Shown: one piece after another, positions 7,548 through 31,923 of the stretch
Position numbering within the stretch: the stretch's first letter is position 1
Layout of the letters: each line of letters starts with the position of its first letter
Assembly: GCF_037902255.1 (NCBI RefSeq)
Contig: NZ_CP147990.1
Span: forward strand, 180,001 to 212,000
DNA from: Candidatus Electrothrix sp. GW3-4
GTDB lineage: Bacteria > Desulfobacterota > Desulfobulbia > Desulfobulbales > Desulfobulbaceae
Direction of reading: 5' to 3'
DNA length: 32,000 nucleotides
Notes under the pieces: model-generated
Seen by the model: the letters and a program-made list of their open reading frames with translations, nothing else
Told to the model about the DNA's origin: nothing
The model's database searches: none
Translations under genes and position numbers: made by a program

Positions 7548-7654
7548 ATACTCGGGATAGCTTGAAACATACCGAAGGATACCTTGAACCATACCCGAAG
7601 ATACCCTGAACCCTACTTGGGATAGGTCGGAGCTATTCCGAGAGCGATTGAAGC
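7548..7654. repeat. About five degenerate tandem repeats of 21-22 nt (two ATAC-type half sites per unit)
   Basis: Units: ATACTCGGGATAGCTTGAAAC / ATACCGAAGGATACCTTGAACC / ATACCCGAAGATACCCTGAACC / CTACTTGGGATAGGTCGGAGC / TATTCCGAGAGCGATTGAAGC. ATAC/ATAG start at 7548, 7557, 7569, 7579, 7591, 7601, 7622, alternating about 10 and 12 nt apart. Unit lengths of 21 and 22 are not frame-preserving. Confidence 0.7.
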
Positions 7655-7720: not shown

Positions 7721-8425
7721 ATGACAGGAGCAGAGAGAAAAATGGGCAAAGTATTTTTAATGTCAGGCGCGATTGGCATAATTGTTGGCGCTGCTATTTC
7801 TATGTATGGGCGTTTTTCGGGTTATCCTGTCACTGTTACGAGTGGCTTTGCTAGTGGTGCCGGGATTGCGGCTGCTCTTCTTGTTTTTGACATGAAGTTA
7901 GGAGCTAATGAGGCGACTAGAAAAGTTGAGGACGCAGAGAGAAAGGCCTATGAGATTGACTCTGAAAGTTCGGATGATATTGCCATTGGCAGACTTTTTA
8001 ATCTTTATAGCAAGCAGATCGAGAAATATCAGCAGGAAACACGTAGTCGTGCGACTTGGTCATTCATTTTTGCTATTCTATCTATGTGTGCCGGTATGGC
8101 TTTTATGTTTTGGGGTGGTCAAGTTGTTCTTTCCGCAGGCGGCGCCAATCACGTTGCTGCAGGCGCAGCCATTTCCGCCATCGGCGGTGGTATCAGCGCA
8201 TATATCACCAAAACTTTCCTGGACGTTCATAAACTTTCGTTGACCCAGCTCAACCGTTACTTCACTCAGCCAGTGATCAACGATCATATTGTGATGGCGC
8301 AGCGCTTGGCCGAAGACGTGAAAGACGACGAGGTACGCAAGAAGTCCTATGAAAAGATCGTCTCCAGCGTTACATCTCTCATCGATTCGACCAATGCCGA
8401 GTTGAACAAAGGTCGTTTAAAATAA
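7721..8425 (+). CDS. Hypothetical 4-TM membrane protein with a Gly/Ala-rich 2-TM hairpin module and helical linker/tail
   Basis: The track ORF is 7658..8425, with alternative in-frame ATGs at 7721 and 7742, so the start is uncertain. TM1-2 are VFLMSGAIGIIVGAAISMYG and GFASGAGIAAALLVF. A charged helix follows, then IEKYQQETRSRATWSFIFAILSMCAGMAFMFWGG...AAGAAISAIGGGISAYITKTFL. It is visibly more AT/T3-rich than the flanking ruvC and recC. Confidence 0.6.
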   Translation: MTGAERKMGKVFLMSGAIGIIVGAAISMYGRFSGYPVTVTSGFASGAGIAAALLVFDMKLGANEATRKVEDAERKAYEIDSESSDDIAIGRLFNLYSKQIEKYQQETRSRATWSFIFAILSMCAGMAFMFWGGQVVLSAGGANHVAAGAAISAIGGGISAYITKTFLDVHKLSLTQLNRYFTQPVINDHIVMAQRLAEDVKDDEVRKKSYEKIVSSVTSLIDSTNAELNKGRLK

Positions 8426-20712: not shown

Positions 20713-21609
20713 ATGCTGCGTGTCTTCAGACCTATTGAACAACAAGAGACAGACAGGAGACAGGACGTGAAAAACGAAATACGGGGAACCCAGGAGCAGA
20801 GTCTCTCAAGACGGCAAGTACTGAAGGGAACAAGTGCCTTGGCGGCTGGAGTGGCATTAACCTCTTTGGCTGGTTTGGTGAAACCGGCAGCTGCAACGGG
20901 CGGGAAAACAGAAAAATGGCCCTGGCCTTACCTCAAACTTGATCCGGCAGAGACCGCAGAGATTGCCTACAAAGAGTGGGATAGGGTTTTCTGTGGGGCA
21001 GCGGTCATCAATAGTGTGTTCAGTCAGCTTCGGGAAAAAATCGGCGAGCCCTATACTTCCTTTCCTTCTGATGCCTTTGTTTTTCTTGAGGGCGGTCAAG
21101 TTGGTTGGGGGACCATCTGCGGCTCTCTGGCCGGTGCGAGTATTGTCGCCAATGTGATTCTTGGTCCCCGTATCGACGATTCCATTCTTGGTCCCCGTAT
21201 CGACGATTCCATTGTTGGTCATCAGATTGCTGAAGATATTATGCAGTGGTACACAACAGCGGAGCTGCCTCTTTACCAACCCAAAGTCCCCAAGATAAAA
21301 ACGAAGCTTCCTGCCACGATCAGTCATTCTCCGCTCTGCCATCTCTCTGTTGGCAGATGGATGAAAACCGCGAACAAGTCACTTGGTAGCCCGGAGAGAA
21401 AAGATCGCTGTGCGCGGGTTGCTGCCAGTACCGCCTATAAACTGGTTGAGTTACTCAATCAGTGGAAGGCCGGAGAGTATGCGTCGGAAAGTGAATTCAG
21501 CTGTGGCAAGACATTCGGAATCCCTGGTCCGAAGAACTGTACCAATTGCCACAGGGAGAAGATTCCTGTTGCACCTAAGATGCCTACAAAAGCACAAGGT
21601 GGATTTTGA
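20713..21609 (+). CDS. Tat-signal C_GCAxxG_C_C-family redox protein with a C-terminal CxxCH motif (split-Soret cytochrome c-like)
   Basis: 298 aa. Twin-arginine signal SRRQVLKGTSALAAGVALTSLAG. Also CGAAVINSVF and WGTICGSLAGASIV (the C-GCAxxG-C-C pattern), and CTNCH near the C-terminus. Confidence 0.65.
   Translation: MLRVFRPIEQQETDRRQDVKNEIRGTQEQSLSRRQVLKGTSALAAGVALTSLAGLVKPAAATGGKTEKWPWPYLKLDPAETAEIAYKEWDRVFCGAAVINSVFSQLREKIGEPYTSFPSDAFVFLEGGQVGWGTICGSLAGASIVANVILGPRIDDSILGPRIDDSIVGHQIAEDIMQWYTTAELPLYQPKVPKIKTKLPATISHSPLCHLSVGRWMKTANKSLGSPERKDRCARVAASTAYKLVELLNQWKAGEYASESEFSCGKTFGIPGPKNCTNCHREKIPVAPKMPTKAQGGF
21157..21210 (+). repeat. Perfect 27-bp tandem duplication inside the C_GCAxxG gene
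   Basis: ATTCTTGGTCCCCGTATCGACGATTCC occurs at 21157-21183 and again, identical, at 21184-21210. A partial third copy ATTGTTGGTC follows. It is in frame: ILGPRIDDS ILGPRIDDS IVG. Confidence 0.95.
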
Positions 21610-21807
21610 GCGCTAGCAAAGAGATGAAGAAGAACAGCGAGTGAGATTTTATAAATTCTCAGAGGCTGCGTTAAAGGAAGGGTGCGCAAGGTCAGGATTT
21701 GGTACCCTCTCTGAAAAAATAATCTGATCGAACTCGTTGCGCCATCCTTTCTTCTATGGTATCAGGAGATAATCATGTGCAGCGATAAGGGCGATGAGGA
21801 TGATACG

Positions 21808-22059
21808 ACGTGCTTTTTAAAAGAGGAGGGTTGCTCCTTCAAAAAGGGGCGCTTGGTTTTCAAAGAGGACAGGTACTTTTTCAAAGAGGAGCTCTCCCTT
21901 TTCATAATGCAGAGCTCAGTTTTAAAAATGTAGTCCATCCTTTTTAAAAGGGAGAGGTGCATTCTCAAAAGGTGGTTGTCCATTTTCATAAGGCGCAGTC
22001 CCATTCTTTCATTGGAGCGCTACATAGGCAGAGAGGAGGGCATCATTCTGTCAGGGAAT
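21808..22059. repeat. About 12 degenerate tandem units of exactly 21 nt (T-run + CAAAGAGGA-type core)
   Basis: Units phase exactly every 21 nt from 21808, for example TGCTTTTTAAAAGAGGAGGGT, TGCTCCTTCAAAAAGGGGCGC, TTGGTTTTCAAAGAGGACAGG, TACTTTTTCAAAGAGGAGCTC. There are no indels across the array. The plus frame from ATG 21775 (AGGAG 6 nt upstream) gives heptads xxxFKEE, with one in-frame TAG at 21931-21933. Minus-strand ORF 21762..22004 gives heptads xxxxLLK. A hairpin AGACAGA/TCTGTCT at 22216-22234 follows. Confidence 0.8.
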
Positions 22060-22257
22060 GTATCCCACCTGTTCAAGGAGACGGGCCAGATCAAAGAGGC
22101 CCTGGAAAAGGTCGGACCAGGTGACCTGACTCATCAGCATAGCAACGACCTTGAAGTCTTGCCCGTGCTTCTTCCTCAGGCTCTGCTCTGAATAAAGTGC
22201 TCTTTCCCTTATTTCAGACAGAACACCTCTGTCTTGAGATCCTTACCCGGAGAAACC

Positions 22258-22857
22258 ATGCAACCTGGAAGCAAAACCATCCTCCTTGGCCTTATCCTTT
22301 TCATCCTCGGCGGCATCGCCTTCCCTGCGGCGATTCTCCTCCCCCTCTTGCTCGGTGATTCCATCGACAAACAGTTCAGCGTCCCCGGAACCCTCCAGGT
22401 TACCATCGAAGAACCGGGGCGGTATTACCTCTGGAACGAGTATCAAACGATCTTCAAGGGAAGGACCTATAATCGCCCCGAAGATCTTCCAGACGGCATG
22501 GAGATCTCCATCACTGATACGGCAACCGGTCGTCCCTTTGCCTTTATTACCTCCTCCTCCATGTCCATGCACGGCGGAAACGAGGAGAAGAGAAGCATCG
22601 GCTATATTAAGGTGAGCAAGCCGACAGAGATTCGGGTTGAGATCAGCGGGGACAACGAAGGGAGGATTTTCTCCTTTGCCCGGGCCACCTTCTTTGAGAC
22701 CCTCAAGCGGATTTTTGGCGGCATCGCCTTGGCCTTTTTTGCCGGTTCCTCAGGCATTGGTCTCGTCATCTGGGGCATTGTCCGGTCGGTGCGGGCCAAG
22801 GACAGGGAAGACCAGGATATTCCGCCTGCCCCGGACAGGCCGGATCAGGATCGCTGA
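22258..22857 (+). CDS. Hypothetical 2-TM membrane protein with an extracytoplasmic beta-rich middle domain
   Basis: The track ORF is 22234..22857. I prefer ATG 22258, with GGAGA 5 nt upstream. N-terminal TM is ILLGLILFILGGIAFPAAILLPLLL and C-terminal TM is IFGGIALAFFAGSSGIGLVIWGIV. It has an acidic Pro-rich tail. I recognise no family. Confidence 0.6.
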   Translation: MQPGSKTILLGLILFILGGIAFPAAILLPLLLGDSIDKQFSVPGTLQVTIEEPGRYYLWNEYQTIFKGRTYNRPEDLPDGMEISITDTATGRPFAFITSSSMSMHGGNEEKRSIGYIKVSKPTEIRVEISGDNEGRIFSFARATFFETLKRIFGGIALAFFAGSSGIGLVIWGIVRSVRAKDREDQDIPPAPDRPDQDR

Positions 22858-23902: not shown

Positions 23903-25664
23903 CTACAGCCCACATTCAGCATACCCTCTATCCATTTCCAGAATATAATTTTTCATATCTCCCACCCAACAGCTTCAGCAGACGCAAATGATGTTCATTT
24001 AAATTCAGGACCAGCTGTTGCATTCCGCCGACAAGCAGCAGGTGAATTCCTGAAAAAAACTGAAATACCCAACGAGCAGTAGGGTTAGGGGCAGGTTTTC
24101 CTTTCTGGTTGGGAAATGTTTCATTATTTATTTCGAGCGCTTGTCTGATGCGATATTCCAACGCGGCGTACACCAGGAGGCAAAGCGTCATAACCATCAT
24201 CAGGGCCATGATACGTTTTCGGGATTTTAAAAAAAGCGTTGAAGCCATAAACATAGGATCTTTGAGGAAACGAAAACCCCGTTCAACCTTTTGCTGATCT
24301 TTGTACACTTTCAAGAGTTCCTCGTCGGACAATTCTTCGCAGTCCAACTGATTCGTTGCAAGAATAAAACAGCTTTTTCGTTCCAACAATCGGGTTCTCT
24401 CCTGAAGCAGGGAGGCTGGGTTGCCTTCAATGCGGTAAACATAAAAGTCCGGTTTCTTGCCCTTGGCTGGCCGTCCTTTGCCCTTATGGCGAGGTAAAGC
24501 AACAACACGAGCGTCATGAATTGAGAGTATTTTCAGCTTTTTTTCAAAACGGGACAGTGCTTTCAATGCATCGGCCTCGCAGGCAAAATCCTGTTTGCAC
24601 AATTTATCGAATTGCTTGGATTCATTTGTGCTCAGCTTGAGGCATTTTTTGTTTACGGTCTTGCGTCCCCGTTGATATGCTTCAGGCGAATAGACAACCA
24701 ACCAGCGCTGCCTGACATCGCCATAAACTACCCCGAGACTGCGAGATGCTGCTTTTTCAGGATCCTGCATCAGATTTGAAGCTACTTCATGGATGATCTC
24801 CTGGGACAGATTCAATGTCTCCGGTACACGGGAAATCCACAATATCATGCTCAGTTCTTTTAATGTTTGCGCTGTATAGAGCGCACTATCCGCAACCAGA
24901 TATTCCAGGCTGAAATCGTTTTTCATCTGATCAATATGCGCTTGCACTGTTTCCCGAAAATCTGTTTTATCGCTACTGTTACCACTTAACGGCTTCATCA
25001 GAAGCGGGATGCCAGCCTGTCGTTCGCAAATGAGCTGCAACACGATCTGGTTCAGATCCGGACGATGATCACGGCTGTAGCCTTTTGTGATCCGAATAAC
25101 ACCTTCTTCCTCTTCTGATCCGTTGGCTGGATAGCGACCGTCGGTATGAAAACTCGTTGAATCCAAGTGACCAAAACGTGCCAGCAGCCCTAGACGACCA
25201 ATTGCCCTAGCTGCAAGCTGCGAATATAACTCTTCGGGATTATGCTCGTAAATCACTTCTAAGGCCCGGCCCAAAACAGTATCGTTCAGGTGCTGGGCCT
25301 CAATGCCTTCTCCGATGAGTCGATCTACCGGTTTATCCTGGAAAAAATGCGGGGTCAGATACAATGCCCGATTCGCAAAGCCCAACCCGTTAAGAACCAT
25401 TGCCTTAACTGCCTGACCAACTGAGACAACTCGCTTTTCTTTATCCTGATGAATCAGACTGTCAATCAGCTCCCCAAGTCCGAGTTCGTCATACATACCC
25501 GCGACTAGGCCCAAGTGATTGAGGAGTTTACTTGAGCATTCCTGTGGTAAAATCGTTGTGTTGTTTTCCATACCTGCTGCCTGGTTGATTTATTAAATGT
25601 CTTTTTGAGGCAGCAGGTTATAAAATATTTTTTTATGTGTCAACGTGCGGAATGTGGGCTACAG
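23903..25664 (-). mobile_element. IS1634-family (IS4-like) insertion sequence, about 1.76 kb
   Basis: Single transposase ORF. Imperfect terminal inverted repeats are CTACAGCCCACATTCAGCA (23903-23921) and the rc of 25646-25664, CTGTAGCCCACATTCCGCA (16/19 by hand count). I could find no convincing target-site duplication. Confidence 0.75.
23928..25571 (-). CDS. IS1634-family DDE transposase
   Basis: 547 aa. The N-terminus LNHLGLVAGMYDELGLGELIDSLI...VSVGQAVKAMVLNGLGF is a DUF4277-like module. HLDSTSFHTDGRY and LVADSALYT are DDE-type motifs, with YKDQQKVERGFRFLKD near the C-terminus. Confidence 0.85.
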   Translation of the reverse strand: MENNTTILPQECSSKLLNHLGLVAGMYDELGLGELIDSLIHQDKEKRVVSVGQAVKAMVLNGLGFANRALYLTPHFFQDKPVDRLIGEGIEAQHLNDTVLGRALEVIYEHNPEELYSQLAARAIGRLGLLARFGHLDSTSFHTDGRYPANGSEEEEGVIRITKGYSRDHRPDLNQIVLQLICERQAGIPLLMKPLSGNSSDKTDFRETVQAHIDQMKNDFSLEYLVADSALYTAQTLKELSMILWISRVPETLNLSQEIIHEVASNLMQDPEKAASRSLGVVYGDVRQRWLVVYSPEAYQRGRKTVNKKCLKLSTNESKQFDKLCKQDFACEADALKALSRFEKKLKILSIHDARVVALPRHKGKGRPAKGKKPDFYVYRIEGNPASLLQERTRLLERKSCFILATNQLDCEELSDEELLKVYKDQQKVERGFRFLKDPMFMASTLFLKSRKRIMALMMVMTLCLLVYAALEYRIRQALEINNETFPNQKGKPAPNPTARWVFQFFSGIHLLLVGGMQQLVLNLNEHHLRLLKLLGGRYEKLYSGNG

Positions 25665-30810: not shown

Positions 30811-31923
30811 ATGAGATACGCTGATGTGGTTCGTTTGAAATCTGTTCAGGCCGTTCTGCTGCTCATCGCCTTGGTCGGGGCCTTTCTGCTGGGGAGGTGT
30901 ACTGGACCGGAACCGAGCAAAGAGGCCGTTGTTGAGAAAGAACAACCAGCACCTGTACAGCCAGTGGAAGAGAAGGTCCCGGTAGTTGTGGAAAAAAGCG
31001 GGGCAGTTAAACCACAGGACATCTCGGTCGAGCCCGTTCCTCCCCCAGAGACTGGGGTGGCAGACGAGGAAGGATACGATTTTACGGAGCAATGCAGGGA
31101 TATTCTGCCGGATATCCGCTGTTGGTGCTCCTGCCTCCCTGAACCTCCCTCCTTGGTGCCCTCGCCTCCCAAAGAGGTGCCTGAGATTATCCCCGAAGAA
31201 ATTCCTGAAGCCCTGCCTGAAGTAAAGTCTGAAGTAAAGCCTGAAGTAAAGCCTGAAGTAGAAGAGACCGAGGAAGAGAAAATGCCTCCTCCTGATATCC
31301 CGGTCAAGGTCGGGGAAAGGCTTCCTGAGGTCTTTCTTGGCTATGATGATGCCGTCTGTGCAGGAGACCTGGTTCCGGCAGTGCGGGCCTCGGTGGCAGA
31401 CCTTGAGGCCCAAGCCATCCTGTACGGAGTAGGGCCACTCAGCGACTGCTCAGGTATCTTTCATCGGGTCTTGATGGGAGTAAAGAAGCGTTGTCCTGAT
31501 CATGCATATCCGCCCATTGACGTGTATCGGGATTCCAGAGATCTTGCCCGTTGGTATAATGAACAGGGCGAGTTGATCCTCATCGAAGACGCCTTGCAAC
31601 GTACCGATCTGATCAGGCCGGGCATGGTCCTGTTCTACGGGCGTGCAGGAAGGGTTTTTAAGAACTTTACCGTTGATGATCTGGTTGCGACCCGAGCCGG
31701 GATTGATCATGTGGGCGTGGTGGTGCGTGTGCAGCGGGATGAAGACGGTGAGGTGTCCAATTATAGGCTGTTCCACGGGCATGGTCGTAAAGGCAAGACA
31801 TTCGCCTCAGCAACCAACTGGCATAGGCGCGAGCCTACCAGGGCCAGTTACCCGCCCTTTGGTAATGGGCGCCAGCAGCTGGTGGCCGCAGCCCGGATTG
31901 TTCGGCCTGAAGAGCAGGAGTAG
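30811..31923 (+). CDS. Membrane-anchored NlpC/P60-like (papain-fold) hydrolase with a Pro/Glu-rich repeat linker
   Basis: 370 aa with AAAGGAGG upstream, 18 nt after the radical SAM gene. N-terminal TM is AVLLLIALVGAFLLG. The linker contains PEVKSEVKPEVKPEVEE. The C-terminal domain has DCSGIFHRV (candidate catalytic Cys) and IDHVGVVV (candidate His). Confidence 0.6.
   Translation: MRYADVVRLKSVQAVLLLIALVGAFLLGRCTGPEPSKEAVVEKEQPAPVQPVEEKVPVVVEKSGAVKPQDISVEPVPPPETGVADEEGYDFTEQCRDILPDIRCWCSCLPEPPSLVPSPPKEVPEIIPEEIPEALPEVKSEVKPEVKPEVEETEEEKMPPPDIPVKVGERLPEVFLGYDDAVCAGDLVPAVRASVADLEAQAILYGVGPLSDCSGIFHRVLMGVKKRCPDHAYPPIDVYRDSRDLARWYNEQGELILIEDALQRTDLIRPGMVLFYGRAGRVFKNFTVDDLVATRAGIDHVGVVVRVQRDEDGEVSNYRLFHGHGRKGKTFASATNWHRREPTRASYPPFGNGRQQLVAAARIVRPEEQE
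31204..31263 (+). repeat. Five tandem 12-nt units (CCTGAAGTAAAG-type) within the linker-coding region
   Basis: CCTGAAGCCCTG / CCTGAAGTAAAG / TCTGAAGTAAAG / CCTGAAGTAAAG / CCTGAAGTAGAA. The units are in frame and encode (P-E-x-x)n. Confidence 0.8.

Follow-up and report, generated by a model that had tools for sequence, protein, structure and literature searches.

The 32,000-nt stretch of DNA that we analyzed (the window) is from the cable bacterium Candidatus Electrothrix sp. GW3-4, which has a closed genome of 4.64 Mb. A 650-nt gap between two of its genes, for a C_GCAxxG_C_C protein and for a 199-amino-acid membrane protein, contains a tandem array of 21-nt repeats. The first-pass annotation of this DNA read the array as heptad repeats encoded on both strands or, alternatively, as an RNA with CsrA-binding motifs. 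We found that each repeat is a worn palindrome. The array consists of non-coding, helically phased palindromic sites, and we tentatively propose, with somewhat less than even confidence, that it is a platform for a symmetric DNA-binding protein that controls a small downstream gene, which we will call gene X. We found a single homologous locus, L154, which is a metagenome contig of 1,228 nt from ENA. The features in the gap are:

21690..21807, plus strand: conserved non-repeat leader, 71% identical to L154 over 117 aligned nt, with one 1-nt indel
21705..21723, no strand: solitary unit-like half-palindrome, CCCTCTCTGAAAAAAT..., which lies 103 nt before unit 1 here and in L154 alike
21762..22004, minus strand: 80-codon open reading frame (ORF), most likely a by-product of the repeats
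21775..21933, plus strand: 52-codon ORF, a by-product of the repeats and not a gene
21808..22038, no strand: the array, 11 units of exactly 21 nt (degenerate 19-bp palindromes plus 2 nt), defined by its periodicity, by a unit matrix that resembles its own reverse complement, and by homology to L154
22033..22039, plus strand: Shine-Dalgarno sequence of gene X (GAGGAGG), which is the right arm of the last unit and aligns with AGGAGG-N6-ATG of L154
22045..22126, plus strand: remnant of gene X, the first ~26-27 codons for a small coiled-coil protein, identified by tblastn (65% identity over 26 amino acids to the L154 gene, MLTGSIPKLLKEAGQVKEALEKVGPG...)
22127..22241, plus strand: junction sequence of unassigned origin, from the gene X remnant to the 199-amino-acid gene, with an in-frame TGA (22189-22191) and a hairpin

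The array and its counterpart in L154

Within 21787-22059, identity is 0.54 at a lag of 21 nt, 0.54 at 42 nt, and 0.51 at 63 nt, compared to 0.13-0.35 at other lags and a background of ~0.25. When we scanned for 21-nt periodicity with a sliding window of 126 nt, the array peaked at 0.63, versus a window-wide 99th percentile of 0.41, and it is the only strong 21-nt-periodic stretch within the 32 kb. Pairwise identity among the units is about 50-55%. Because the units are just ~55% identical, Tandem Repeats Finder detected only the best 2.3 copies (21857-21904). The strict 21-nt phase that was reported at first is borne out by the strong periodicity and by the lack of small indels within the array, but the array ends at 22038 and not at about 22059. 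The weakly periodic units past 22045 lie outside the array and belong to what is left of the 5' coding part of another gene (gene X). Since homology to gene X begins at 22045, what had been counted as units 12-14 are codons of gene X.

The units are worn versions of a 19-bp palindrome, approximately CTCCTTTTT-C-AAAAAGGAG, with 2 nt added. When the position-frequency matrix for the 11 units is compared to its reverse complement, there is one shift at which the two are strongly correlated (r = 0.79), and at all other shifts r is at most 0.36. The matrix for the units of L154 gives r = 0.82, and their consensus, CGCTCCTTTTTCAAAAAGGAG, has 2 nt besides the perfect 19-bp palindrome CTCCTTTTT-C-AAAAAGGAG. 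Also, blastn aligns the array with its own reverse complement. The conserved core of the unit is T4, C6, T8-T11, A13-A16, G18, and A20, with the dyad centre at unit position 12. With up to two mismatches allowed, the core motif is found at nine places in the array and at one in the rest of the 32 kb (1.9 occurrences expected), so within the window the motif is confined to the array. Both loci have the dyad symmetry within units that is seen in iterons, centromeres, and operators, and both have a constant, helix-compatible spacing of exactly 21 bp, over 11 units in the window and 15 in L154. The solitary half-palindrome in the leader corresponds to CTCCTCTTTGAAAAAC in L154 (reverse complement, 635-650). 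Its distance from unit 1 is slightly off the 21-nt phase (105 nt would be in phase). We also considered whether phased A-tracts might curve the DNA, and we set this aside on general knowledge: T5-N-A5 is a T-then-A arrangement, and such arrangements do not cause intrinsic curvature.

The reverse complement of L154 is homologous to the window from ~21690, the left limit of homology, to ~22126. Besides the leader (71% identity), this includes the array (66%) and the following 81 nt (72%). The alignment of the arrays has two gaps, of exactly 42 nt each, and no small indels in 231 aligned nt. Selection on the length or phase of the units had been suggested from the window alone, and indels that come only in whole multiples of 21 nt, at 66% identity, support it. 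Several units can be matched individually across the loci: W1-L1, W3-L3, W5-L7, and W11-L15 are 0.67-0.71 identical, and W6-L8 are 0.86 identical (W and L are units of the window and of L154). Because these units are still recognizable, the divergence among units must be older than the split between the two organisms. The genes upstream are different (in the window, the C_GCAxxG gene; in L154, one for a polytopic membrane protein), which implies that the leader, the array, and gene X move together as a module. (The C-terminus of the membrane protein looks MBOAT-like by eye; it has no family match.) By these searches, the module is without a match to any described family and has one known relative, while its architecture is of a known kind. 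In particular, a blastn search of plasmids with 21690-22130 (the leader, the array, and what remains of gene X) gave no match. Within the conserved leader, we found no convincing sigma-70 or sigma-54 promoter. A promoter-like sequence inside the array (TTCAAA-17-CATAAT, 21880-21908) was rejected, as it is not kept in L154 when the units are compared by eye.

Directly after its last unit, L154 has AGGAGG-N6-ATG and an ORF that starts with MLTGSIPKLLKEAGQVKEALEKVGPGLPDSITVAEMEARIAAVEAKV... and is interrupted by the end of the contig. The offset from the end of the array to the start codon is 7 nt at both loci. In the window, the start codon is ATT (22045-22047) instead of ATG. Homology to gene X stops at ~22126, and an unrelated 65 nt then leads to the TGA. 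Across 27 codons, the remnant and the L154 gene differ by 9, 2, and 12 substitutions at the first, second, and third codon positions. As judged from this alignment, gene X of GW3-4 is a truncated remnant that has lost its ATG and everything beyond codon ~26. The L154 protein has no family or relative in Pfam, NCBIfam, or the sequences in PDB, and its only matches are weak ones to designed coiled coils. Searches for gene X in viral contigs, against plasmids (tblastn), and by exact look-up in protein clusters were negative or meaningless. Because gene X is dead in GW3-4, the array there is probably a relic, and one that was orphaned recently.

Alternatively, the array could be an old minisatellite that arose by tandem duplication of a 21-nt segment, comprising the ribosome-binding site and first heptad codons of gene X, and that has been decaying since, with no function of its own. 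In favour of this, the first codons of gene X are unit-like and in phase with the array (W13-W14 and L17-L18, such as TCAAAGAGG). The number of units varies (11 versus 15), as expected for a neutral variable-number tandem repeat, and they are only about 50-55% identical. The element is rare, with one homologue in 1.84 billion representative proteins and none at four loci with the 199-amino-acid gene or at five with the C_GCAxxG gene. Furthermore, the array persists in GW3-4 despite the death of gene X, and metagenomes have many unrelated 21-bp minisatellites. However, neutral decay should be even across the unit, with small indels occurring freely, and neither is the case. The consensus base is present in as few as 8 or as many as 25 of the 26 units, depending on the position (chi-squared = 79.7, 20 degrees of freedom, p = 4e-9). 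The slowly decaying positions are also the ones that are conserved between species: the window and L154 differ at 33/132 positions (25%) in the palindrome core and at 46/99 (46%) of other positions (Fisher p = 0.0008). Third codon positions of gene X differ at a rate (44%) much like the non-core one, yet there is no small indel in 231 aligned nt. Given the indel rates of bacterial intergenic DNA, several small indels would be expected at such divergence. These comparisons indicate that constraint acts on the core of the motif and on the phase, and we consider a purely neutral origin to be unlikely.

Heptad reading frames and RNA-level readings

The ORFs that were reported originally are present as described. 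On the plus strand, an ATG at 21775 with AGGAG 6 nt upstream begins a frame with a TAG at 21931-21933, which then continues to the TGA at 22189-22191; on the minus strand, the ORF at 21762..22004 encodes 80 amino acids. The suggestion that these are genes did not hold up, as none of our tests (of codon phase, stop counts, start codons, or conservation of the units) gave a coding signature. Heptads appear on both strands because of the palindromic form of the units, the centre of which coincides with a third codon position. Leu/Phe-type codons on one strand (CTC, CTT, TTT) are the complements of Glu/Lys-type codons on the other (GAG, AAG, AAA). Since the dyad centre is a third codon position in both of the mirrored frames, the variable base at the centre never makes a stop codon, and each strand has one frame in which stops are rare. 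The third codon positions of both frames are also the most conserved among units, with a mean of 0.81 bits versus 0.51-0.56 at the other positions. The arrays of the window and L154 differ at rates of 0.377, 0.338, and 0.312 substitutions in the three codon phases, and the lowest of these is for the shared third position (24/77).

Could the array have once encoded the N-terminal heptads (x-C/S-L-F-K-E-E) of a longer gene X, and be a decayed extension of it in both genomes? The plus-strand heptads are in frame with gene X at both loci, the FKEE-type heptads resemble LLKEA and QVKEA of gene X, and the window has just one stop in this frame. The first-pass annotation had suggested that homologues with a sense codon in place of the TAG would point to a pseudogene. 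Formally this is the case: the TAG aligns with CAG in L154. But this result is cancelled because L154 has other stops and no start. Its plus frame lacks an ATG, and its three stops are unrelated in position to the TAG of the window, so the stops arose independently. The ATG and AGGAG at 21763-21777 of the window align with ATT and CTAGAG in L154, where a strong ribosome-binding site and ATG are found downstream of the array instead. Furthermore, the pattern of conservation within the units is not that of a protein. In TNC (positions 4-6) and RNG (positions 16-18), the first and third bases are kept while the second base, and hence the amino acid, varies. G18, which is a third codon position, is present in 25/26 units across codons for E, K, M, R, G, and L. 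In simulations that preserve only the motif, the plus frame has 2.3-3.1 stops on average, and we observed 1 in the window and 3 in L154, which is what the motif alone would produce. Finally, the read-through peptide (138 amino acids, with X at the stop) had no match among 5.8 billion proteins. We consider this origin for the array to be quite unlikely.

A real heptad-repeat protein on the minus strand seems very unlikely. The evidence for it is that the frame is open across the array at both loci, with nearly identical ends (..LHMIIS* and ..LQMIL*), and that the 80-amino-acid ORF is similar to P0215, a predicted protein of 81 amino acids (BLASTP E = 4e-12). However, P0215 is the same frame of the L154 array, so this similarity is no more than the homology of the DNA, translated in one frame. 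The two loci have their start codons at non-homologous positions, and neither has a convincing ribosome-binding site. In the motif-only simulations, the minus frame has a mean of 1.3-1.8 stops (observed: 1 in the window and 0 in L154), and the probability of having no stop is 0.26 for 11 units and 0.155 for 15 units. With just two sequences, both open, and with openness expected by chance in 16-26% of simulated arrays, the open frame may well be due to chance. Also, it is the third codon positions of this frame that have the fewest substitutions. In an exhaustive HMMER search of the 1.84 billion representative proteins with the minus-strand peptide, P0215 was the one true relative (E = 3e-5). 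We rejected the three other matches, which are low-complexity TPR proteins, as spurious. The earlier statement that neither peptide belongs to a known family is therefore correct, given that the plus-strand peptide has no match and the minus-strand peptide matches only P0215. Gene callers did annotate these repeat ORFs: the 52-amino-acid ORF is called on a contig from an independent assembly of the same organism (Logan), and P0215 is called in L154.

The array might instead act at the RNA level. The proposal that it resembles an RNA that titrates CsrA is not supported. Against a CsrA sponge, only 12/26 units have an intact GGA (unit positions 18-20), whereas 25/26 have the neighbouring G18. 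Rfam gave no match at the gathering score, and for CsrB, CsrC, and RsmX/Y/Z there was none even at E ≤ 1. The predicted hairpins of the units are weak or absent, and GGA would fall in the stem.

A broader possibility is that the array is a long 5' leader of the gene X mRNA that tunes the translation of gene X. Each unit would provide an anti-Shine-Dalgarno-like arm (CUCCUUUUU) alternating with a Shine-Dalgarno-like arm (AAAAAGGAG), and these could form serial hairpins or be repeated U-rich, A-rich, and GGAG sites for ribosomes or for an RNA-binding protein of the CsrA, Hfq, or S1 type. The ribosome-binding site of gene X is indeed formed by the last unit's right arm, and since we found no promoter that separates gene X from the array, the array could plausibly be transcribed with it. 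A perfect ancestral unit would fold at -6.7 kcal/mol. The region as a whole folds modestly better than shuffled sequences do (plus strand, z = -2.0; minus strand, z = -2.8), and there are slightly more G.T than C.A mismatches (28 versus 15, p = 0.066), as would fit pairing in a plus-strand RNA. But most present-day units lack a fold: their hairpins have means of -1.1 to -1.9 kcal/mol, and many are at 0. At the variable mirrored pairs (5-19 and 7-17), there is no covariation, and complementarity is the same as for shuffled partners, both within units and between adjacent ones; pairing in the core is likewise no better than with shuffled partners. In other words, the symmetry resides in the consensus and not in pairing within single units. 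G18, A13, and T8 are near-invariant, while GGA is missing from more than half of the units, and an RNA leader gives no obvious reason for the exact 21-nt spacing or for indels of whole units. No Rfam family supports it either. We view such a leader as improbable. (The sole terminator-like call, inside unit 2, was discarded as an artefact of the motif.)

Neighbouring genes and other features of the window

Upstream of the array is the gene for the C_GCAxxG_C_C protein (20713-21609), which is exported by twin-arginine translocation (TAT). Downstream is the gene for the 199-amino-acid membrane protein (22258-22857, WGN25_00905), which has no match in Pfam, and then a gene for a DUF5666 protein and an insertion sequence (IS) element. 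Both of the proteins that flank the array are 100% identical to NCBI entries from the GW3-4 genome. These genes agree with the first-pass description of a protein with two transmembrane segments and a DUF5666-like protein downstream of the array. The wider window contains ordinary chromosomal genes (RecC, CCA-adding enzyme/poly(A) polymerase, YebC, sensor kinases, an NhaA antiporter, and a GGDEF protein), and this content does not suggest a prophage or a plasmid.

We compared the 199-amino-acid gene's loci L002, L003, and L031-L033. The four orthologues, on Electrothrix-type contigs, have no array upstream; they have toxin-antitoxin genes, a transposase, or an ATPase instead. Similarity between the window and these loci starts only ~17 nt upstream of the ATG at 22259. 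As orthologues of the gene do without the array, the array is not part of its regulation. On the evidence of these loci, the adjacency of the array and the 199-amino-acid gene is accidental. Similarly, the relatives of the upstream C_GCAxxG gene (five loci, L004-L008) have no shared synteny and no array.

Electrothrix-type genomes vary at the spot upstream of the 199-amino-acid gene (22127-22258 in the window, and the corresponding regions of L002, L031, L032, and L033). What is found there can be Phd/ParE and HicB toxin-antitoxin genes, a DDE transposase, an ATPase, or, in the window, the array. On the other side, the 199-amino-acid gene elsewhere directly precedes a convergent pair of genes for a histidine kinase and an OmpR-type regulator; in the window, the DUF5666 gene and the IS element are inserted between them. 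The junction sequence (22127..22241) is similar neither to L154 nor to the regions upstream of the orthologues. Its hairpin (22216-22234) was noticed in the first pass, and it does fold, with a 7-bp stem (AGACAGA/TCTGTCT, with 3 G-C pairs) and a loop of ACACC; TGAGATCC comes next. Downstream of the stem there is no run of T, and a terminator scan did not report the hairpin, so it does not qualify as an intrinsic terminator.

We made several other observations about the window. The longest ORF for the C_GCAxxG gene has 298 codons, while the identical NCBI protein is annotated with 280 amino acids, so its start codon is uncertain. Besides its TAT signal, this protein has a C-terminal CTNCH motif, which is of the haem-binding type (CxxCH), and its relatives go by "iron centre cytochrome c protein" in some sources. 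Within the gene, at 21157-21220, there is an in-frame tandem duplication of 27 nt (2.4 copies, 97% match), which is translated as ILGPRIDDS ILGPRIDDS. The IS element encodes an intact transposase of 547 amino acids on the minus strand (23928-25571), with DUF4277 and DDE_Tnp_1 domains. The contig in the independent Logan assembly ends at about this transposase, as expected for a multicopy element. There are also short tandem repeats at 7555-7616 (a 22-23-nt unit, 2.8 copies, 85% match) and at 31215-31260 (a 12-nt unit, 3.8 copies, 94% match).

A candidate binding platform and its likeness to known systems

A symmetric motif at a spacing of two helical turns, without covariation, suggests an array of the operator, iteron, or centromere type, with sites for a dimeric protein. 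We propose that each unit is a putative site for a DNA-binding protein with two-fold symmetry. As 21 bp is about two turns of B-DNA, the 11 palindromic sites would all be on one face of the helix. The protein might load cooperatively along this face, up to and over the region where transcription and translation of gene X start, and the loading would control gene X. The functional module would comprise the leader, the array, and the small coiled-coil gene, with the last unit supplying the gene's ribosome-binding site. We infer this binding mechanism from the palindromes and from the way they have evolved, both of which can be seen directly in the aligned arrays.

Several points weigh against our proposal of a binding platform. 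Beside the array, in either the window or L154, there is no linked gene for partition or replication and no obvious regulator (Rep, ParB/ParR/ParG, or a repressor). We did not locate a promoter for gene X, so the array could be either upstream of the gene X mRNA or inside it. The weak excess of G.T over C.A mismatches would fit pairing in a plus-strand RNA. The units, at about 50-55% identity, are far more degenerate than those of characterized iteron or centromere arrays. The orthology of W2 and W8-W10 is ambiguous, which inflates the contrast between core and non-core positions. With only two instances of the array known, our evolutionary tests are low in power, and the conservation profiles of the left and right arms do not mirror each other significantly (r = 0.35, n = 9). 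Last, the presumed target, gene X, is dead in GW3-4. Because gene X is truncated and the array is probably orphaned, the biological importance of the array in GW3-4 itself is probably low.

The binding platform could also be something more unusual. A dimeric protein might polymerize on the 11-15 two-turn-spaced 19-bp palindromes, up to the coiled-coil gene, and form a segrosome-like or operator-like nucleoprotein filament for gene control or for organizing the DNA. Selection would maintain the core of the motif while other positions drift freely. This would be an undescribed chromosomal device of cable bacteria and their relatives, outside of any plasmid or phage context, and we think it somewhat unlikely.

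We compared the array to other repeats with a similar period. A scan of metagenomes with a degenerate version of the array's pattern gave at least 120 matches. Those listed are unrelated minisatellites with unit identities of ~0.7 or more, except for one marginal case with six units (L124), and none of the listed matches is a relative of the array. The same kind of scan against viral sequences gave 22 matches, mostly AT-rich and many of them on giant-virus (GVMAG) contigs; the six that we inspected are short arrays of nearly identical units. One of the metagenomic repeats, a satellite from lake metagenomes with the unit CCGGGGTCCTTTAAAAGGACC, is similar to our array in having a 21-bp period, a palindromic unit with TTTAAAA at the centre, and open heptads on both strands. 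It is found in L098 (1-850), L136, L055, L085, L047, and other contigs with Ga0194 accessions, with up to 40 or more units per array. Unlike the array in the window, its units are 0.8-0.94 identical, and it has no link to the start of a gene; the two repeats are unrelated in sequence. The satellite's contigs are repeat-rich, with 55-60% GC, and are probably eukaryotic DNA. In L098, the heptads are GPRGPLK on one strand and DPGVLLK on the other. Since L098 shows the same effect, reading heptads on both strands is generic to palindromic 21-bp repeats. More broadly, palindromic 21-nt tandem arrays are a trap for anyone reading ORFs: they look like heptad "proteins" on both strands, and gene callers annotate them. 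At our locus, recognizing the palindrome removes two spurious candidates for small proteins, and satellites like L098 are useful negative controls for this kind of reading.

What the array shares with small RNAs of the CsrB/RsmZ type is a large number of purine-rich A(R)GGA-like motifs in a span of a few hundred nucleotides. But in our array, GGA is present in under half of the units, and a symmetric core of T, A, C, and G is conserved instead. Also, the motifs are not in the loops of hairpins, there is no match in Rfam, and a strict 21-nt period is not a feature of those RNAs.

The iterons of phages and plasmids are another parallel. Replication iterons of the lambda type are palindromic, ~19 bp long, and about 21-23 bp apart. 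Like them, the array has short palindromes with an A/T-rich centre and CTCC..GGAG-like arms, spaced by about two turns. Our pattern scan found phage contigs with similar units, namely AAGATCTCCCTAAAAGGGAGC (four copies in L020) and CGTAGGCTCCTCAAAGAGCCT (four copies in L017). Each of these (L017, 3010-3093, and L020, minus strand, ~8056-8139) has four identical 21-bp units of the CTCC..GGAG type, and they look like the iterons of replication origins. Phage iterons differ from our arrays in having 4-5 nearly identical copies, while the window and L154 have 11-15 heavily diverged units with no gene for a replication initiator nearby.

A further parallel is to plasmid centromeres. The F plasmid's sopC is made up of 12 direct repeats that each contain a 16-bp inverted repeat, to which SopB binds (PMC3177203), and parH of TP228 has degenerate boxes with AT-rich spacers (PMC3130281). 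Centromeres such as sopC, parH, and parC of the ParR type share with our array the arrangement of tandem repeats at a fixed spacing, each with an inverted repeat or a short degenerate box for a dimeric protein, which is putative in the case of our array. In contrast to plasmid centromeres, the array is on a chromosome, with no gene of the ParA, ParM, ParB, or ParR type adjacent to it at either locus. Its units are also far more degenerate, and the downstream gene encodes a small coiled-coil protein that is not assigned to a family.

If the array is a phased binding platform, then it would be a rare chromosomal case of the architecture of plasmid centromeres or iterons, in cable bacteria, which to our knowledge do not grow in pure culture. 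It would also make a clean prediction for footprinting, as the phase of the sites is strictly kept while non-core positions drift freely.

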